Below are positions 3,081 to 29,910 of a DNA stretch of 64,000 nt, piece after piece. A program made the position numbers and the translations under genes. How positions within the stretch are numbered: the stretch's first letter is position 1; every line of letters starts with the position of its first letter. The notes under the pieces are model-generated. The model was given only the letters and a program-made list of their open reading frames with translations, had not been told where the DNA came from and searched no databases. Source of the stretch: Bacilli bacterium (GTDB lineage Bacteria > Bacillota_I > Bacilli_A > RF39 > UBA660); assembly GCA_017428495.1 (NCBI GenBank), contig JAFRQS010000023.1, forward strand, positions 670 to 64,669, read 5' to 3'.

Positions 3081-3102
3081 ATGTACAATATGTACATTTT
3101 TT
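3081..3102 (+). terminator. Short terminator hairpin after the TspO gene
   Basis: ATGTACA-ATA-TGTACAT followed by Ts. Confidence 0.55.
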
Positions 3103-3158
3103 TATTGTTTATATTTAATTATTATTTTTTGATGTATAATAAAATTAGGAGTAGTAGT

Positions 3159-4424
3159 ATGAATGGGTTGTATTTAGGAATATATGTAGTATTAATTTTA
3201 TTATTAGTTATACTTGGTGCTTTTATTTTTATGAATAGAAAGGCACACATTAAGAAAATCATATTTTTTTCAATACTTATTTTTACTATTCTTTTATTTG
3301 TTGGATATTATGGATATAGCATTTTAAATAAACCTATATTAAAAATAAATGGTAGTGAAATAGTAAACATATCTGTATTTGATAAATATAATGATGAAGG
3401 ATTTGAAATAAAGCATCCGAACTCTACTAAATTAAAAAAAGCAGTTAAAGTAGATAATAATGTGGATACTAATAAAGTGGGTACATATAACGTAAAGTAT
3501 TCATTAAAATATTTTGGAAAAGACATATATGCTACTAGGATAGTTAATGTAATAGATGAAATAAAACCTATAATTGAATTAAAGGGAAATACTGAATTGA
3601 CATTATCAAGAGGTATAGAATATGCTGAACAAGGTTATACTGCTACTGATAATTATGATGGTGATATAACTAATAAAGTAAAAGTAGAAAATAATATTTT
3701 AGATGAAGTTGGCAAGTATGAAATAATATATAGTGTTACAGATTCTAGTGGTAATAGTTATTCTATTAAAAGAATAGTAAATAGGTTAAATAACAATAAT
3801 GGTGTAATATATTTAACATTTGATGATGGGCCAAGTTCAAATACTTCTAAGATATTAGATATATTAAAAAGTGAAAATATTAAAGCAACATTTTTTGTGG
3901 TTAATTATGGTTCTGCATATGATTTGCTTGTGCAAAGAATAGTTAATGAAGGTCATACTATTGCCTTACATAGTTATACACATGATTATAAGATTATATA
4001 TGCATCTGAAGAGTCATATTTTAATGATTTAATTACTTTAAAAAATAAAGTTAAAAATACAACGGGAATAGATTCAATTATAATAAGATTTCCGGGTGGA
4101 AGTTCCAATACTATAAGTAGTTTTAATAAAGGTATAATGTCTAGATTAGTAAATGCAGTAAAAGAACAAGGATATCATTATTTTGATTGGAATGTAGATA
4201 GTAGAGATGCTGGTGTAGCAAAGAATAGTACTGAAGTGTATAATAACGTTATGAAAGGACTTATACCTAATAGATCAAATGTGGTTTTAATGCATGATTT
4301 AGGATATAATGTTAAGACTGTTGAAGCGTTGAAAAACATTATTGAAGATTCAAAGAACAAAGGATATTCATTTGCTAGAATAACTAATGATACACCTATG
4401 ATTACACACAAAGTAAATAATTAA
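3159..4424 (+). CDS. Membrane-anchored polysaccharide deacetylase (CE4/NodB) with two DUF5011-type Ig-like domains
   Basis: YLTFDDGP, ALHSYTH, IRFPGG, DWNVDSRD and VLMHD motifs; DNYDGDITNKV repeats; N-terminal TM segments; start at ATG 3159 after AGGAG. Confidence 0.9.
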   Translation: MNGLYLGIYVVLILLLVILGAFIFMNRKAHIKKIIFFSILIFTILLFVGYYGYSILNKPILKINGSEIVNISVFDKYNDEGFEIKHPNSTKLKKAVKVDNNVDTNKVGTYNVKYSLKYFGKDIYATRIVNVIDEIKPIIELKGNTELTLSRGIEYAEQGYTATDNYDGDITNKVKVENNILDEVGKYEIIYSVTDSSGNSYSIKRIVNRLNNNNGVIYLTFDDGPSSNTSKILDILKSENIKATFFVVNYGSAYDLLVQRIVNEGHTIALHSYTHDYKIIYASEESYFNDLITLKNKVKNTTGIDSIIIRFPGGSSNTISSFNKGIMSRLVNAVKEQGYHYFDWNVDSRDAGVAKNSTEVYNNVMKGLIPNRSNVVLMHDLGYNVKTVEALKNIIEDSKNKGYSFARITNDTPMITHKVNN

Positions 4425-4500: not shown

Positions 4501-4585
4501 ATTGCTTATAAACTACAAAAAATGTATTTTTGTAATTTGAATTAAAGATTTAAAAATGATATCTTTGCACTAAAGGAGGAATAAA

Positions 4586-6100
4586 ATGAAAAAGTTTTTA
4601 ATAAGTGTAATGTTACTATTATTAGTTGTTACAGTACGTGCTGAAGAAAAAGTAAATTTAAAATTAGAGTGGATACCTAATATGTATTATAGTTATAAAA
4701 AGGATGGTATGACATATTGGGGTCAATTTGCATATGCCTATGTGGATGGTAAGATAGCATATTGTCTAGATATATACCATCCTATAACTAAGTATGAGTA
4801 TACATCGACAAGTGAAATTCAGGAAAATAATTTGGTTATATTAGCAGGATATTTTGGATATGGATATAATGGTGAATATTTACTAAAAGATTATGTCGCT
4901 ACACAAAAACTAATATGGGAATATTTGGGTATGAATGTAAAAATAACTGCTGAAAGTGAAGGAAAAGGTAGGGAAATAGATTTGTATGATAATACTTTAA
5001 AAATAATAGAAAGAATAAATAGATATGCACTATTTCCAAGATTTGATAGTGACTTTATATTTGATTTAAATACAACAAATCAGTTAAATGATTTAAATGA
5101 AATAAGTGATAATTTCGATATAATAAATGAGTCATATAATAATATATATTCTATAGATAATAATGTAATATTTGAAGCATATGAAGTTGGTACAAATGAT
5201 TTTTATTTAAAAACCAAATATGATATGAATCATTCTAATATTATATTTGTAGCACCAGATTCCCAAAAAATAATGATTATTGGTGAAGTAAATAACTTAA
5301 CACAAAGATATTCTTATGAGGTGGTTGATTCTGATGATGAAACTCCAATAATAGAAGAAAATCCAATAATAGAGGAAGACCCAGTAGTAGTGGAAGACCC
5401 AATAATAGAGGAAGACCCAGTAATAGAAGAAGACTCAGTAATAGAAGAAGACCCAATAATAGAGGAAGATCCAATAATAGAGGAAGACCCAGTAGTAGAA
5501 GAAGACCCAATAATAGAGGAAGATCCAATAATAGAGGAAGACCCAGTAGTAGAAGAAGACCCAATAATAGAAGAAGATCCAGTAATAGAAGAGGATCCAG
5601 TAATAGAAGAGGATCCAGTAATAGAAGAGGATCCAGTAATAGAAGAGGATCCAGTAGTAGAAGAATACCCGATAATAGAGGAAGATCCAATAATAGAGGA
5701 AGATCCAGTAATAGAGGAAGACCCAATAATAGAAGAAGATCCAATAATAGAAGAAGATCCAGTAATAGAAGAAGATCCAGTAATAGAAGAGGATCCAATA
5801 ATAGAAGAAGATCCAGTAATAGAAGAAGATCCAGTAATAGAAGAGGATCCAGTAATAGAAGAGGATCCAATAATAGAGGAAGATCCAGTAATAGAAGAAG
5901 ATCCAGTAATAGAAGAGGATCCAGTAATAGAGGAAGATCCAGTAATAAAGGAAGATCCAGTAATGGAAGAAGAGAGTGTAAATATTGAAAATAGTGTGAA
6001 AATTTCAGAAAAAATAGATAAGTTACCATTTTTAGGGGTATATTATGAAAAAAATCTTAATATTTGCATTTATTTTATTAAATTTAACTGGATGTACTAA
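4586..6100 (+). CDS. Cys-Gln thioester-domain (TED) surface adhesin with acidic repeat stalk and LPFLG sorting-like motif
   Basis: Signal peptide; AYCLD (Cys at 4763), ATQKLIW motif, candidate reactive Gln in DSQKIMIIG (5264); 35 EEDPVI-type repeats; C-terminal KLPFLG; adjacent sortase. Confidence 0.75.
   Translation: MKKFLISVMLLLLVVTVRAEEKVNLKLEWIPNMYYSYKKDGMTYWGQFAYAYVDGKIAYCLDIYHPITKYEYTSTSEIQENNLVILAGYFGYGYNGEYLLKDYVATQKLIWEYLGMNVKITAESEGKGREIDLYDNTLKIIERINRYALFPRFDSDFIFDLNTTNQLNDLNEISDNFDIINESYNNIYSIDNNVIFEAYEVGTNDFYLKTKYDMNHSNIIFVAPDSQKIMIIGEVNNLTQRYSYEVVDSDDETPIIEENPIIEEDPVVVEDPIIEEDPVIEEDSVIEEDPIIEEDPIIEEDPVVEEDPIIEEDPIIEEDPVVEEDPIIEEDPVIEEDPVIEEDPVIEEDPVIEEDPVVEEYPIIEEDPIIEEDPVIEEDPIIEEDPIIEEDPVIEEDPVIEEDPIIEEDPVIEEDPVIEEDPVIEEDPIIEEDPVIEEDPVIEEDPVIEEDPVIKEDPVMEEESVNIENSVKISEKIDKLPFLGVYYEKNLNICIYFIKFNWMY
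5336..5965 (+). repeat. Coding tandem repeat, 35 x 18 bp (EEDP[V/I][I/V])
   Basis: Units read directly, e.g. GAAGAGGATCCAGTAATA; 630 bp total from DETPII to KEDPVM. Confidence 0.97.
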
Positions 6101-6500
6101 TACTGATGTAAGAGATAATAGTCTTGTTATTGCTAAGATAGGTATTGATGAAAAATATAGTATAGTAAATTTGGATGATGATGTTAATGGTATAGTTATG
6201 TATAGTGAGTGTGGGAGACCAGATAAGGATGGATCTAATACAGTTATAGGTGCACATTCTGGAATAGGCAGTAATGCATTATTTAACAATATATCTAAAC
6301 TAGAAATAGGTGATTTAATAAGTTTAGTCTATAATAACTATGAATATACGTATGCGGTTATAGATGTTAAAGTAGTAAATGATAGTGATAGTTATATATT
6401 GGATGATACTGGTGAAAATTTGCTTACTTTAATTACGTGTAAGTTTGGCTATGTTGATAAAAGAATTGTTGTTATTTCTAAACTTACAATTGACTTATGA
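6045..6500 (+). CDS. Minimal sortase with lipoprotein signal peptide
   Basis: Catalytic GAHSG (His), LTLITC (Cys) and KRIVV (Arg); N-terminus MKKILIFAFILLNLTGC ends in a lipobox. Confidence 0.88.
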   Translation: MKKILIFAFILLNLTGCTNTDVRDNSLVIAKIGIDEKYSIVNLDDDVNGIVMYSECGRPDKDGSNTVIGAHSGIGSNALFNNISKLEIGDLISLVYNNYEYTYAVIDVKVVNDSDSYILDDTGENLLTLITCKFGYVDKRIVVISKLTIDL

Positions 6501-6518
6501 CACAATGTCAGTTATAAT
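6490..6518 (+). promoter_or_regulatory. Sigma-A promoter with embedded palindromic TetR operator
   Basis: TTGACT-N17-TATAAT, with TGACA-CAA-TGTCA (6498-6510) in the spacer, directly upstream of the TetR gene. Confidence 0.8.
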
Positions 6519-6535
6519 TTAATTGGAGGTATTAT

Positions 6536-7135
6536 ATGGCTAAACAAACTTTTATTAATTTACCTGAAGAAAAGAAAAATAAAATAATTAAATCTTTGAA
6601 GAAAGAATTTAGCAGAGCGTCATTAAAAGATGCTTTAGTGTCTAATATAGTAAAAGAAGCTGGTATTCCAAGAGGCAGTTTTTATCAATATTTTGAGGAT
6701 ATTGAAGATTCATACTACTATGTAATAGAAGAATATTCTAATAACATTAAAAAGTTTTTAATTGAAGACTTAAGAAATAATAATGGAGATATAATTTTGG
6801 CTTATAGACATCTATATATATACATATTAGATATGATAGATAATAAAAATAATAAAGAATATTTTGAAAAGATATTTTTAAATATGAGTTATGAAGTTCA
6901 AAGTATGTTTACGCCTAATTTTAATGATGGACTTAACTTAATAATAAATTATGTTGATTGTTCAAAATTAAATATAGCATCTAAGTTTGGTTTAGGATAC
7001 GTCCTTGATATAATTGAATCTACAATGATGAATAGTATAATAAAAAGTTATAAGAGAAATTTAAGTAGAGAAAAAAATATAGAAATATTTGAAAAAGAAT
7101 TAGCACTTATATGTGTTGGTGTATTAAAAAAGTAA
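6536..7135 (+). CDS. TetR/AcrR family transcriptional regulator
   Basis: N-terminal HTH VSNIVKEAGIPRGSFYQYFED. Confidence 0.92.
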   Translation: MAKQTFINLPEEKKNKIIKSLKKEFSRASLKDALVSNIVKEAGIPRGSFYQYFEDIEDSYYYVIEEYSNNIKKFLIEDLRNNNGDIILAYRHLYIYILDMIDNKNNKEYFEKIFLNMSYEVQSMFTPNFNDGLNLIINYVDCSKLNIASKFGLGYVLDIIESTMMNSIIKSYKRNLSREKNIEIFEKELALICVGVLKK

Positions 7136-7193
7136 TTATTTACTTTTTTTCTTTTTAATGGTAATATAAAACTTGTTTTTGGGAGGGGATTTT

Positions 7194-7703
7194 ATGTTTG
7201 GATTTTCAAGTTTAAGATGCTCAGATTGTTCATGGATTGATCCTAGGGATAGAAATAGATATGGAGAATATTATTGTACTAAAGAAAGAGAATATGTATC
7301 TGGTGATGATTATACTTGTAGAGATTTTGAACCTAATTTTTATGTTATGACGGCATATTGTAAAATAAAAAAATTGCCATATAATTGCGATGAAATGATT
7401 TCTTTAATTGCTCTTAGAGACAAATATATGGTAGAAGATTTAAAAGGTAGACCATTTTTAGAAGAGTATGAAATTATTGGACCTATTCTTGCGGTTAGAT
7501 TACAAGCTGATATGTATAGAAGTGATATAGTAAGAAGTATGGAAGAAGACTATATACATCCTGCTATGGAAATGATGCTTATGGGAGATTTTGATGGTGC
7601 TCAAGAATCTTATATACAAATGGTTGAAATGTTAAAAATTAGGTATGGATATGCTCCAGCCAGAAAAACTGATAAGAATAAGAAAAAAGACTTTAAATTT
7701 TAA
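7194..7703 (+). CDS. Small protein with N-terminal Cys cluster and CFI-box-CTERM-like domain
   Basis: CSDC...YC...TC at the N-terminus; FYVMTAYC...NCDEMISLIALRDKYM...GRPFLEEYEIIGPILA resembles the CFI-box pattern; start ATG 7194 after GGGAGGGG. Confidence 0.55.
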   Translation: MFGFSSLRCSDCSWIDPRDRNRYGEYYCTKEREYVSGDDYTCRDFEPNFYVMTAYCKIKKLPYNCDEMISLIALRDKYMVEDLKGRPFLEEYEIIGPILAVRLQADMYRSDIVRSMEEDYIHPAMEMMLMGDFDGAQESYIQMVEMLKIRYGYAPARKTDKNKKKDFKF

Positions 7704-13058: not shown

Positions 13059-13120
13059 TATTAATAATATGTATATTGTTTAAAATTGTAAAAAGTTATA
13101 TAATTATAATAGGTGATAGT

Positions 13121-14473
13121 ATGAATAAAAGAGGTTTTACTTTAGTAGAAGTTATAGTTAGCTTTGTTCTTATTACGGCAGTTTCATTAGCATTATTTAA
13201 AACTACATTGTCTATTCAAGAAAAACAAAAAGAGAATTTAGCAATAAATTCATTTAAAGCATTTAATCTAGCAATTAATAATGAGATACAATATGATTTT
13301 TTAACTGATAAAATATTATCTACAACTCCATGTGGAGATAGTTGTTATGATATTGTATTTGAGAATAGAGGAACCGTTAGGACAACTTTAAATAAAGAGG
13401 ATGGTATAATAACATATGGAAGTTTCAAGGAAAAATTGCCAAGTGAGTATAAGTTTTATGATGATATGCTAATTACCAGTTATTCATCAGATAATGAAGG
13501 TCTAAATTCATATGTAGTAATGACTATACCTGTAAAGAGTAATTATGAGCCAAATTTGAGTAATATAAAATATATGTATCAGTATGATAAGAATAATCCA
13601 AATGCATTGGTTGATTTAAATTTACCAAATGCAAGTGATATATTTGCATCTAAAGTAGGTGAATGTGGATTATATAGAGATGATCACGGTGATTTGAGAT
13701 ATCAAGGATCAAATCCATGTAATTATGTAACATTTAATGATGAAACATGGAGGATAGTAGGGATATTTACTGTTGATGGGGATAAAAGAATAAAGATTGT
13801 TAGAGAAGAGTCATTGGGCAGTTATTCATGGGATTCAAGTGATTCTACTATAAATGGTGGCGATGGAATAAATCAATGGGGACCATCTGGAACATATGTT
13901 GGTGCAGACTTAATGTTGGAATTGAATGGTGACTATTTGAATTCTTCATTATCCGCAAATACAAATTGGTATAATGGTGAAGATGGACAGCAGGATGCAG
14001 TATTTAATAAAGATTATGTTTTAAAGCAAGATTCAAAAAAATTAATAGCTGATACAACATGGCATTTAGGTGCGTTTACTGGGACCGCAATTAATTCATT
14101 AGCCTCAGTATATTTAGCAGAAAGAGGAGTGGATCATTTTGCAAATCCGACTGATGGTGTAGAAAGAACAAATACATGGAAAGGTAAAGTTGGATTGATC
14201 TATCCATCTGATTTTGGATATGCTTCAGCAAATTATTCATGCAAGGACAATATTAATTCGACTGGTATTTGTGATAATAATTGGATGTCTAATTATGGTT
14301 GGACTATTACTACTACCGCATCCACTGTGAAACATGGTTGGTATTCGGTTGCTCAGAATAATACTGGTTCCAAGATGGCGGTTGCACATCCAGTACATCC
14401 ATCAGTATACTTAAAATCAATTGTTAAAGTTGCTGGAGAAGGTACAACTGATAATCCATATATATTTAGTTAA
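13121..14473 (+). CDS. Prepilin-type N-terminal cleavage/methylation protein with large C-terminal extracellular (DUF6273-like) domain
   Basis: MNKRG/FTLVEVIVSFVLI class III signal; C-terminal NYVTFNDETWRIVG, KVGLIYPSDFGYA and GEGTTDNPY motifs. Confidence 0.8.
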   Translation: MNKRGFTLVEVIVSFVLITAVSLALFKTTLSIQEKQKENLAINSFKAFNLAINNEIQYDFLTDKILSTTPCGDSCYDIVFENRGTVRTTLNKEDGIITYGSFKEKLPSEYKFYDDMLITSYSSDNEGLNSYVVMTIPVKSNYEPNLSNIKYMYQYDKNNPNALVDLNLPNASDIFASKVGECGLYRDDHGDLRYQGSNPCNYVTFNDETWRIVGIFTVDGDKRIKIVREESLGSYSWDSSDSTINGGDGINQWGPSGTYVGADLMLELNGDYLNSSLSANTNWYNGEDGQQDAVFNKDYVLKQDSKKLIADTTWHLGAFTGTAINSLASVYLAERGVDHFANPTDGVERTNTWKGKVGLIYPSDFGYASANYSCKDNINSTGICDNNWMSNYGWTITTTASTVKHGWYSVAQNNTGSKMAVAHPVHPSVYLKSIVKVAGEGTTDNPYIFS

Positions 14474-24854: not shown

Positions 24855-25223
24855 ATGAAAAAAGGGTTTACTTTAATTGAAGTGACTGTTGTGATACTTT
24901 TGTTAGGAGTATTATCAATTTTTATAATTCCTAAGGTAACAACTACTATTGGTAATAATAAAGCTAAAGCTTGCGCAAGTATAGTGACAAGTGCGGAGGA
25001 AGCAGCAAAAGCGTATACTTATATGCATATAGAAACTATTGAAGAAGATATTGTATCTAATGGTTATTTTGATATTACAATAGGGGAATTACAAGATGAA
25101 GGTTTATTAAAAATGAATATAGAAAATCCATATGAAGAAGGTTATATTTCAACTTCTAATAATGTAAGAGTTACAAAAAATGGAAATAAATATATATACA
25201 CATATATGGGTGGTGAATGTTAA
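24855..25223 (+). CDS. Small type IV pilin/ComG-like prepilin
   Basis: MKKG/FTLIEVTVVILLLGVL class III signal; 122 aa; two Cys. Confidence 0.88.
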   Translation: MKKGFTLIEVTVVILLLGVLSIFIIPKVTTTIGNNKAKACASIVTSAEEAAKAYTYMHIETIEEDIVSNGYFDITIGELQDEGLLKMNIENPYEEGYISTSNNVRVTKNGNKYIYTYMGGEC

Positions 25224-29145: not shown

Positions 29146-29910
29146 ATGAAAACAAGAATATTAATGATTGATGATAATATAAATTTAGTTGAGATGATTG
29201 GAGAATATTTTAAGGATAATAAATATATAGAAATGAGTTTAAAGGCTAATTCTGGTGAAGAAGGAATAAAATTAATTGAGGAAAGAAAAGATGATTATGA
29301 TGTAATTATTTTAGATTTGATAATGCCCAATAAAGATGGTATTTATGTATTAGAAGAAATGAAGAAAAAGAGTATAGATAAACCAGTAATAATATCTACT
29401 TCATATAATAGTGATGATATGATTAGAAGAGTGTCTGAATATGGAGTACAGTATTTTTTGTTAAAACCATATGAATTATCAGATTTAGAAAATAGAATAT
29501 TGGAACTTTGTAATTCGGATTTTAAAGAAAGTAAAAATATAAATTTATATCATAATAATTTACAAATATCTATTACAAAAATATTACATGAATTAGGAGT
29601 TCCTTCCCATATCAAAGGATATCAATATATTAGAGAAGGAATAACGCTTTTGTATAGCAATCCAGATATGATTGGTGGTATAACTAAAGAATTGTATCCA
29701 GAAATAGCATTAAAGTTTAGTACTACTGTTTCAAGAGTAGAAAGAGCTATAAGACATGCTATAGAAGTTAGCTGGAATAGAGGTGATTGGGATTTGATGG
29801 ATGAAATATTTGGACATAGTGTAGATATAGATAAAGCAAAACCAACTAATTCAGAATTTATAGTAACAGTTGCAGATAAACTTAGACTAGATAGAGCAAA
29901 AACTAATTAA
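29146..29910 (+). CDS. spo0A: Sporulation master regulator Spo0A
   Basis: Receiver domain LDLIMP; C-terminal [26 protein letters not shown] and KPTNSEFI. Confidence 0.98.

Follow-up and report, generated by a model that had tools for sequence, protein, structure and literature searches.

Two overlapping genes in a 64,000-nucleotide stretch of a Bacilli bacterium genome (GTDB lineage Bacteria; Bacillota_I; Bacilli_A; RF39; UBA660; assembly GCA_017428495.1, contig JAFRQS010000023.1, positions 670 to 64,669; hereafter the window) raise the question of how a surface protein with an unusual sorting motif and a short, partly polar tail might be attached to its cell. The first gene encodes an adhesin (4586..6100, 504 aa) and the second a sortase (6045..6500, 151 aa); these and the features described below lie on the forward (+) strand unless stated otherwise. 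We consider it likely that the two belong together, the sortase being dedicated to the adhesin as its substrate and anchoring this covalent adhesin by means of a natural LPxLG signal.

The adhesin gene is an open reading frame (ORF) with homologs at 40–79% identity and conserved synteny. Along its product lie a signal peptide, a Class II thioester domain (TED), an acidic repeat stalk, the sequence KLPFLG and a 20-aa tail, with the motif residues AYCLD at positions 58–62, TQKLIW at 106–111, DSQKIM at 225–230 and LPFLG at 480–484. The motifs, repeats and overlap that the original prediction, made from the sequence alone, had listed for the adhesin and the sortase were each recovered in their places. 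The gene is preceded by an AT-rich intergenic stretch of 160 nt and by a Shine-Dalgarno sequence, AGGAGG (4574..4579), which was read from the sequence and has the ATG 6 nt downstream. A scan for promoters and terminators counted no more sites than in shuffled sequence, and no promoter is claimed; an Rfam scan of the window gave no match. Residues 1–19 (MKKFLISVMLLLLVVTVRA; 4586..4642) have the sequence features of a Sec signal peptide, conserved in all homologs, with probable cleavage after VRA. The model of the adhesin head gives the signal-peptide helix low confidence, with a predicted local distance difference test score (pLDDT) of 50–63.

The head itself (residues 21–255; 4646..5350) is predicted to be a Class II TED. 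Its Pfam TED match alone is marginal (23.3 bits, cutoff 22), and the assignment was based on profile and structure evidence, not on that match. Homologs of the head (query residues 1–255) fall into 32 clusters at 40–79% identity. A profile made from the N-terminal 250 aa of 17 sequences from the related loci (alignment A3) had a single match in the Protein Data Bank (PDB), to the S. aureus SaTIE-TED structure 6FX6 (E 8.4e-19, profile positions 21–255). The AlphaFold2 model built from A3 reached a pLDDT of 90.1 and a predicted template modelling score (pTM) of 0.82, with beta-strands across residues 158–247, and has the predicted Class II fold of a head lobe plus an inserted beta-sandwich. With this model Foldseek ranked 6FX6 at the top (E 7.9e-11, TM 0.60/0.63) and also found BaTIE, 6FWV; all other hits had E >1e-3. 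The TED proposed in the original prediction is thus borne out both by a profile match to SaTIE-TED over the whole length of the domain and by fold matches of the model to 6FX6 and BaTIE.

Which residues would form the thioester is indicated by the alignment to SaTIE. The Class II [YFL]CΦζ motif is present as A-Y-C60-L-D, with Tyr59 and Cys60 invariant in sets of 17 (17/17) and 24 (24/24) homologs, and Cys60 (codon 4763..4765) is the predicted thioester cysteine. TQKLIW (Thr106–Trp111; 4901..4918) corresponds to the accessory TQxxΦW motif, whose Gln107, Ile110 and Trp111 do not vary among the homologs. Towards the C-terminus of the domain, S-Q227-K-I-M fits the weak ΦQζΦΦ motif; 16 of the 17 loci keep its Gln227 (codon 5264..5266, within DSQKIM), as do all 31 of the full-length homolog clusters from the database. 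In the SaTIE structure the thioester joins Cys296 and Gln467, while the Gln and Trp of TQxxΦW merely pack against the bond (Miller et al. 2018, PMC6194298). Because the HMMER alignment pairs SaTIE Cys296 (chain position 47) with Cys60 and Gln467 (chain position 218) with Gln227, the predicted bond-forming pair is Cys60–Gln227 and TQKLIW is accessory. Of the motif set first put forward for the domain, DSQKIM therefore stands as the source of the predicted bond-forming glutamine, and the glutamine of TQKLIW as bond former does not. In the related locus L021 an Asn (NGYNTLVK, about 2900-2920) occupies the site aligned to Gln227, so that this relative either lacks the thioester or has a sequencing error there.

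The TED is followed by 35 tandem 18-nt units (5344..5973) that encode (E-E-D-P-V/I-I)n, an acidic, proline-rich stalk or wall-spanning region. Tandem Repeats Finder reports a single array (period 18, 35.0 copies, 89% matches, score 861), so that the 35 EEDPVI units counted earlier hold for this assembly; the composition of the repeat is 31% E, 20% I, 15% D, 15% P and 13% V. The near-identical strain L025 (GCA_017388165.1, 8686-10056), whose N-terminal domain is 98% identical, has 27 units, and in a metagenome that contains the window sequence the short-read contigs break within the array. The number of units varies with the strain or with the assembly, and the figure of 35 is best read as assembly-dependent. 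Relatives carry other acidic repeats that are unrelated in sequence, such as EEPTEEPEI (L003) and the DENxxEEPKDN type (L005), and in most homologs, which are 600–800 aa long, SpaA-like prealbumin domains separate the TED from the acidic region. We take these SpaA-like domains to be lost in the window's subclade. The system was at first described as minimal, a term that fits the window allele but not the family in general, since most relatives carry the SpaA-like stalk domains. A 250-aa ORF on the opposite strand (5277-6029, −) was rejected as a gene; it is a repeat artefact, the Leu/Pro-rich opposite-strand reading of the array.

Behind the stalk stands LPFLG (6023..6037), a variant of the sortase recognition motif that is conserved across the family as LPxLG. 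Among the 31 full-length adhesin homolog clusters the C-terminal motif is LPxLG in 29 and LPxLS (LPYLS) in two, LPxTG occurs in none (0/31), and NCBIfam models of the LPXTG anchor did not match the adhesin. In each of the 15 species-representative genomes found by the sortase profile (L008-L022), the gene upstream of the sortase encodes an adhesin homolog and overlaps the sortase start by 4–83 nt. The motif differs by subclade: LP[FYD]LG accompanies sortases with a lipobox and LP[DSQ]L[YNF] those with a transmembrane anchor, with L022 (VPPAG) as an outlier. In three relatives, L009 (IINHVNYLIFFLLGYKRVKKNNC), L011 and P0020, a hydrophobic stretch and then a cluster of K/R come after LPxLG; because a canonical tail follows it there, LPxLG occupies the position of a real sorting motif. 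The original prediction had called the signal non-canonical, and this held: all 31 clusters have LPxL[G/S], and independent assemblies show both this 20-residue type of tail and the overlap of 56 nt. It had also named, as evidence against itself, homologs with a normal LPxTG-transmembrane-basic tail; the hydrophobic-plus-basic tail does exist in the three relatives just named, but it stands behind LPxLG and not behind LPxTG.

The Shine-Dalgarno sequence of the sortase gene, AGGGG (6033..6037), lies inside the Leu-Gly codons of the motif, with the ATG 7 nt downstream, which raises the possibility that the motif is kept for translation of the second gene. LPxLG is equally kept where the sortase start and ribosome-binding site are 12–45 nt further downstream (L008, L009, L013-L021), so the ribosome-binding site does not by itself account for it. 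Moreover, the Leu-Pro of the motif, which is outside the Shine-Dalgarno sequence, is invariant, and the Gly is constant while the third position of its codon varies (GGG, GGT, GGA). At the Shine-Dalgarno position homologs have AGGGG, AGGTG or AGGAG, all synonymous in the adhesin frame. The motif is also chemically plausible, since streptococcal class A sortases process Leu at P1 in vitro: they accept LPKLG and often prefer LPxLG (PMC8248031, PMC7586933).

Among the other ORFs of the 64-kb window none has a C-terminal signal of the LPx[TL]G type. A large Cys-rich surface protein (3-1757, +) ends in ...TNTCLCWG without a sortase signal or C-terminal anchor and is not a substrate of the sortase next to it; its full-length relatives carry Big_2 and Ephrin_rec_like repeats.

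The sortase was identified by Pfam (PF04203, 5.1e-18), by TIGR01076 (59.5 bits, cutoff 39.35) and by its predicted structure. The AlphaFold2 model (pLDDT 87.9) is a sortase barrel with TM scores of 0.70–0.75 to many sortase structures, and is equally close to classes A, C, D and E. The catalytic residues His71 (GAHSG, codon 6255..6257), Cys132 of the TLxTC motif (TLITCK, codon 6438..6440) and Arg140 (KRIVV, codon 6462..6464) are invariant in 17 homologs at 39–100% identity, which, together with both family matches above cutoff, substantiates the 151-aa sortase with His, Cys and Arg that had been predicted. Over the mature region the ratio of nonsynonymous to synonymous polymorphism (pN/pS) is 0.29; this value and the invariant triad argue that the enzyme is under selection. 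The 151-aa sequence has neither the class C lid motif DP[FWY] nor a C-terminal transmembrane helix. When 1.84 billion representatives were searched exhaustively, no more than 13 clusters reached E 1e-30, which marks the enzyme as a member of a small, distinct subfamily. Automatic gene calls truncate the N-terminus of two related sortases, in L032 (3414-3895) and L033 (about 3261-3727), to 114 and 97 aa because the true start sits inside the upstream adhesin gene, and this sortase family is probably under-annotated in databases.

At its N-terminus the sortase has a lipoprotein signal peptide, MKKILIFAFILLNLTG|C (6045..6095), in place of the uncleaved transmembrane anchor, and is presumably lipid-anchored through Cys17 (codon 6093-6095). 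The sequence MKKILIFAFILLN-LTGC17 matches the lipobox consensus [LVI][ASTVI][GAS]C, and PF08139 (LPAM_1) scores 22.2 bits against a cutoff of 20. An [LIV]x[GA]C lipobox is present in 15/15 full-length close sortase homologs and also in L008-L012, in L032 and L033 once their starts are corrected to the overlapped ATG, and in the six best full-length library representatives. That all close homologs and the best-ranking library representatives share it is consistent with the lipid-anchored enzyme originally proposed. The lipobox is conserved in the subclade down to about 45% sortase identity, and relatives below about 43% (L013-L021, P0065-P0069) have a plain N-terminal transmembrane anchor; because these deeper relatives have the latter, the lipobox is derived within one sortase subclade. 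A survey of homologous pairs had been suggested for both features, and of these LPxL[G/S] proved general in the 31 clusters while the lipobox is restricted to that subclade. A full-text literature search found no description of a natural lipoprotein sortase.

The adhesin ends in ...KLPFLGVYYEKNLNICIYFIKFNWMY. What follows LPFLG is a weakly hydrophobic, aromatic tail of 20 residues, VYYEKNLNICIYFIKFNWMY, and the stop (6038..6100), most of which is encoded in another frame across the signal-peptide codons of the sortase. On the Kyte-Doolittle scale the tail reaches a best 12-residue mean of 1.05 in the window, 0.41 in L003 and −0.92 in L005, compared with 2.1–2.7 in the relatives with a canonical tail, and its end, ...FIKFNWMY, has one Lys in the last 8 residues where L009, L011 and P0020 have 3–4 K/R. 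The tail thus has neither a hydrophobic membrane-spanning segment nor a positively charged C-terminal end, in agreement with its first description as short, partly polar and without a basic end. The two genes overlap by exactly 56 nt in the window and by 4–85 nt in every locus in which both were seen (the window, L001-L007, L008-L022 and L027-L033); in all 24 related loci that were checked, adhesin and sortase are neighbours and overlap. The 56-nt overlap and the tail form V[YR]Y[ED]K..N.[YC][IM]YF[IT]K[FY].W[ML][YQ] recur in the window, L001-L007, L027 and L029-L031, independent assemblies from different studies with 58–87% sortase identity. Within the tail, the conserved W-M or W-L near the end corresponds to the Gly-Cys codons of the lipobox (GGN TGY; GGA TGT in the window) read one base earlier. 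Pooled over the overlap, pN/pS by the Nei-Gojobori method is 0.215 in the adhesin frame versus 1.02 in the sortase frame, which taken alone would point to constraint on the adhesin frame. We rejected the rule that a long overlap brings about degeneration of the tail, as in L032 (P0020) the genes overlap by about 85 nt and the tail is still hydrophobic-plus-basic, and also a programmed frameshift or fusion at the A7 run that follows the sortase ATG, as L003 lacks the run and keeps both frames.

These features can be combined into a scheme. The two genes would be a translationally coupled cassette in which gene 2 starts within the tail codons of gene 1. The adhesin would be exported by Sec, and the sortase, which carries a type II signal peptide for export and has about 134 residues when mature, would be tethered through diacylglyceryl-Cys17 to the outside of the membrane. 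This lipid-tethered sortase would recognise LPFLG, cut LPFL|G after Leu483, with an acyl-enzyme as the intermediate, and pass the adhesin on to an acceptor amine, most likely that of a peptidoglycan precursor. The TED would then be displayed as a "harpoon" at the tip of an acidic stalk of variable length, where the Cys60–Gln227 thioester could form a covalent amide with an amine on the target surface. In this scheme we infer the cleavage of LPFLG by this sortase, the lipidation, the acceptor, the formation of the thioester and the target. A stronger version, which we put forward only tentatively, is that sorting in this clade of rumen and gut Bacilli is self-contained and orthogonal: the lipoprotein sortase would be specific for LPxL[G/Y] and not for LPxTG, and the retention element of the substrate, a hydrophobic span with a basic tail, would be dispensable and overprinted by coding for the sortase signal peptide, with capture of the substrate through the lipid-tethered enzyme, translational coupling or recognition of the aromatic tail instead of through a precursor anchored in the membrane.

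Several observations weigh against anchoring of the adhesin to the wall by its own sortase, and they bear on different parts of the scheme. One concerns the acceptor. The sortase lies outside every curated class, all NCBIfam class models scoring far below cutoff (bits/cutoff: class C 51.8/160, class D 45.4/165, SrtD 46.3/140, class E 32.2/160, class F 21.1/166, GN 24.5/158), and related orders include peptidoglycan-deficient families, with repeated loss of peptidoglycan and of penicillin-binding proteins (PMC10868615). The sortase might act on LPFLG with an acceptor other than peptidoglycan, either in a pilus-type polymerisation or attachment to a partner protein, or on an amine of a membrane lipid or lipoprotein in a cell whose wall synthesis is eroding. 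Class C is the best of the class-specific models, far below cutoff as it is, the top fold matches include pilin sortases, and TEDs occur as adhesins at the tips of some pili (Cpa; PMC6194298); the lipid anchor, together with a very short linker, would in addition keep the active site at the membrane surface. We nevertheless regard another acceptor as unlikely. The fold distances are equal for classes A, C, D and E, the lid motif and C-terminal transmembrane helix of class C are missing, and the cassette, with one sortase and one substrate, has neither a pilin motif (YPKN) nor a second pilin gene. Furthermore, a Pro-rich acidic stalk before the motif is the classical wall-spanning layout, and the presence of spo0A in the window points to a walled cell.

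Other observations concern the signal. A tail of the window type is, as its hydropathy indicates, too polar and too short for a membrane anchor and lacks a basic end, and its conservation may largely be a by-product of the overlapping codons for the signal peptide and lipobox. Substitutions in the overlap are even over the codon positions (9/9/10, seven sequences), counts that show no clear protein-level constraint on the tail. It is accordingly conceivable that LPFLG and the tail are no longer a working signal in this subclade, that the adhesin is released or held non-covalently, and that the sortase serves another substrate elsewhere in the genome or is near loss, the motif being kept mainly for the ribosome-binding site in its Leu-Gly codons and the overlap with the start. 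The Class II TED adhesin of pLS20 does work without a sortase signal (PMC8092201). We judge this improbable in view of the invariant Leu-Pro, the persistence of LPxLG where the sortase starts well downstream, and a Gly that stays constant while its codon varies. The invariant catalytic triad and the pN/pS of the mature enzyme likewise speak for selection on the enzyme, adjacency of adhesin and sortase is universal in the family, and the window holds no other candidate substrate. That the short tail and the overlap could instead be an assembly error or a frameshift of an LPxTG-transmembrane-basic gene, for example by slippage in the A7 run (6047-6053), was suggested by the position of this homopolymer directly after the sortase ATG and by the errors to which metagenome assemblies are prone near repeats. 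This explanation is effectively refuted, and we assign it next to no probability: the same tail type and 56-nt overlap recur in the independent assemblies, L003 has the same frames without an A7 run (ATGATAAGATTT), a DNA run gives error-free contigs over 5902-6700, and no homolog has LPxTG. The frameshift allele that the original prediction had named as a refuting outcome is thus not what the data show, and a dedicated pair acting through LPxLG remains the reading that we prefer.

The genomic surroundings of the pair are chromosomal, with the conserved order TspO, polysaccharide deacetylase, adhesin, sortase, TetR, small ORFs, LemA, PTAC, Dus and LysS. Directly upstream of the adhesin gene is a membrane-anchored polysaccharide deacetylase with Ig-like domains (3081..4424; PF01522 4.8e-23, PF16403 1.5e-28), which is absent in L033. 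A TetR-family regulator (6536..7135; Pfam TetR_C_19 1.1e-18) lies 35 nt downstream of the sortase and always adjoins the adhesin-sortase pair (L001-L007, L023-L033); it is a possible regulator of the pair. Downstream of TetR in all relatives is a Cys-rich protein of 176 aa (7173-7703, +; CSDCSW...YYCTKE...YTCRDFEP) with no Pfam match, followed in several relatives by an extra 126-aa ORF that is absent from the window.

Elsewhere in the window a Spo0A homolog (29146-29910, +; Spo0A_C 1.7e-40 and a receiver domain) suggests that the lineage keeps at least the master regulator of sporulation and, by its presence, supports a walled host cell. Type IV prepilin N-methylation leaders were found in two proteins (13076-14473, +, 465 aa, N_methyl 5.7e-6; and 24855-25223, +). 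Surface display in this genome may thus run mainly by way of pilins, with the sortase serving a single adhesin. The sequencing runs that contain the window sequence come from bovine, sheep and other gut metagenomes; candidate RNA runs, the kind of which is not on record, gave few low-depth contigs, from relatives only. The metagenome-assembled genomes L013, L016, L017 and L019-L022 are titled "uncultured Muribaculaceae bacterium" despite a low-GC, Bacilli-type cassette, and these labels look wrong. In a survey of the orders RFN20, RF39 and ML615J-28, srtA/B were reported absent by KEGG orthology from RFN20 and ML615J-28, and reduced surface display was inferred (PMC10868615).

To place the locus among known systems we compared it with described adhesins and sortases. 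A TIE-type adhesin with a dedicated sortase is an already known type. With the Class II TIE adhesins (SaTIE 6FX6, BaTIE/BasC 6FWV and EfmTIE86; PMC6194298) the window adhesin shares the signal peptide, the Class II TED, the YCΦζ cysteine, TQxxΦW and the C-terminal bond-forming Gln, as well as the order of a stalk and then a C-terminal sortase signal; the identity of its TED to SaTIE-TED is about 18%. The two differ in the stalk, which in the TIE adhesins consists of CnaB isopeptide or ester domains and in the window of the low-complexity acidic (EEDPVI)35, in the signal, which is LPxTG-transmembrane-basic in the former and LPxLG with a short aromatic tail in the latter, and in the enzyme, a housekeeping SrtA as opposed to a dedicated, overlapping sortase. 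A Class II TED adhesin without a canonical LPXTG-transmembrane signal also exists in TIE-pLS20 (p34) of the B. subtilis plasmid pLS20 (PMC8092201). There it is encoded in a conjugation operon with no sortase gene or dependence, whereas the window locus is chromosomal, among housekeeping genes, and always has its own sortase.

On the side of the enzyme, class A sortases (S. aureus SrtA; B. anthracis SrtA, 2KW8; L. monocytogenes SrtA, 5HU4) are the best PDB sequence matches and share with the window sortase the eight-stranded barrel, His-Cys-Arg, TLxTC and a similar size. They have an uncleaved transmembrane segment and Thr at P1, whereas the window sortase has a lipobox signal peptide, a very short linker and Leu at P1; it also differs from class A in apparently having one substrate, from the overlapping gene, and in scoring below every NCBIfam class cutoff. 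Streptococcus class A sortases (PMC8248031; PMC7586933; spySrtA-LPALA complex, PDB 8T8G) process Leu at P1, as we propose for the window sortase. Their preference for Leu is seen in vitro and their natural substrates are described as LPxTG, whereas LPxLG (or LPxLY) is the sole motif found in the natural substrates of the window family. Sortases dedicated to particular substrates (SrtB-IsdC with NPQTN; class D SrtC/SrtD with LPNTA; class C with pilin) share with the window pair a variant pentapeptide and genetic linkage. What sets the window pair apart is its motif, the lack of a lid and of pilin partners, the lipobox anchor and the DNA shared between substrate tail and enzyme signal peptide. 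Three features appear to be undescribed in the literature that we searched: LPxLG/LPxLY as a natural signal, a sortase with a lipobox, and DNA that encodes both the tail of a substrate and the signal peptide of its enzyme.

The family widens the natural repertoire of sortase signals by a whole set of substrates with Leu at P1, previously only an in vitro preference of streptococcal SrtA, and a very small sortase of different specificity could find use in orthogonal ligation. With a lipid anchor and a linker of about 10 residues, the active site would lie at the membrane surface, which bears on how sortases make contact with their substrates and with lipid II, and the two-frame coding of tail and signal peptide throughout the family means that a gene overlap couples the enzyme to what is apparently its only substrate. 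Should sorting prove to be self-contained and orthogonal, the enzyme would be the first lipid-anchored sortase known from nature and its signal the first natural one with Leu at P1, and RFN20 and ML615J-28, scored as "sortase-less" by KEGG orthology (PMC10868615), would have sortase-dependent display after all. So divergent a sortase would escape the srtA/B ortholog screen of that survey, if the lineage belongs to the surveyed orders. For this uncultured lineage of the ruminant gut, the locus identifies a likely covalent-adhesion factor.

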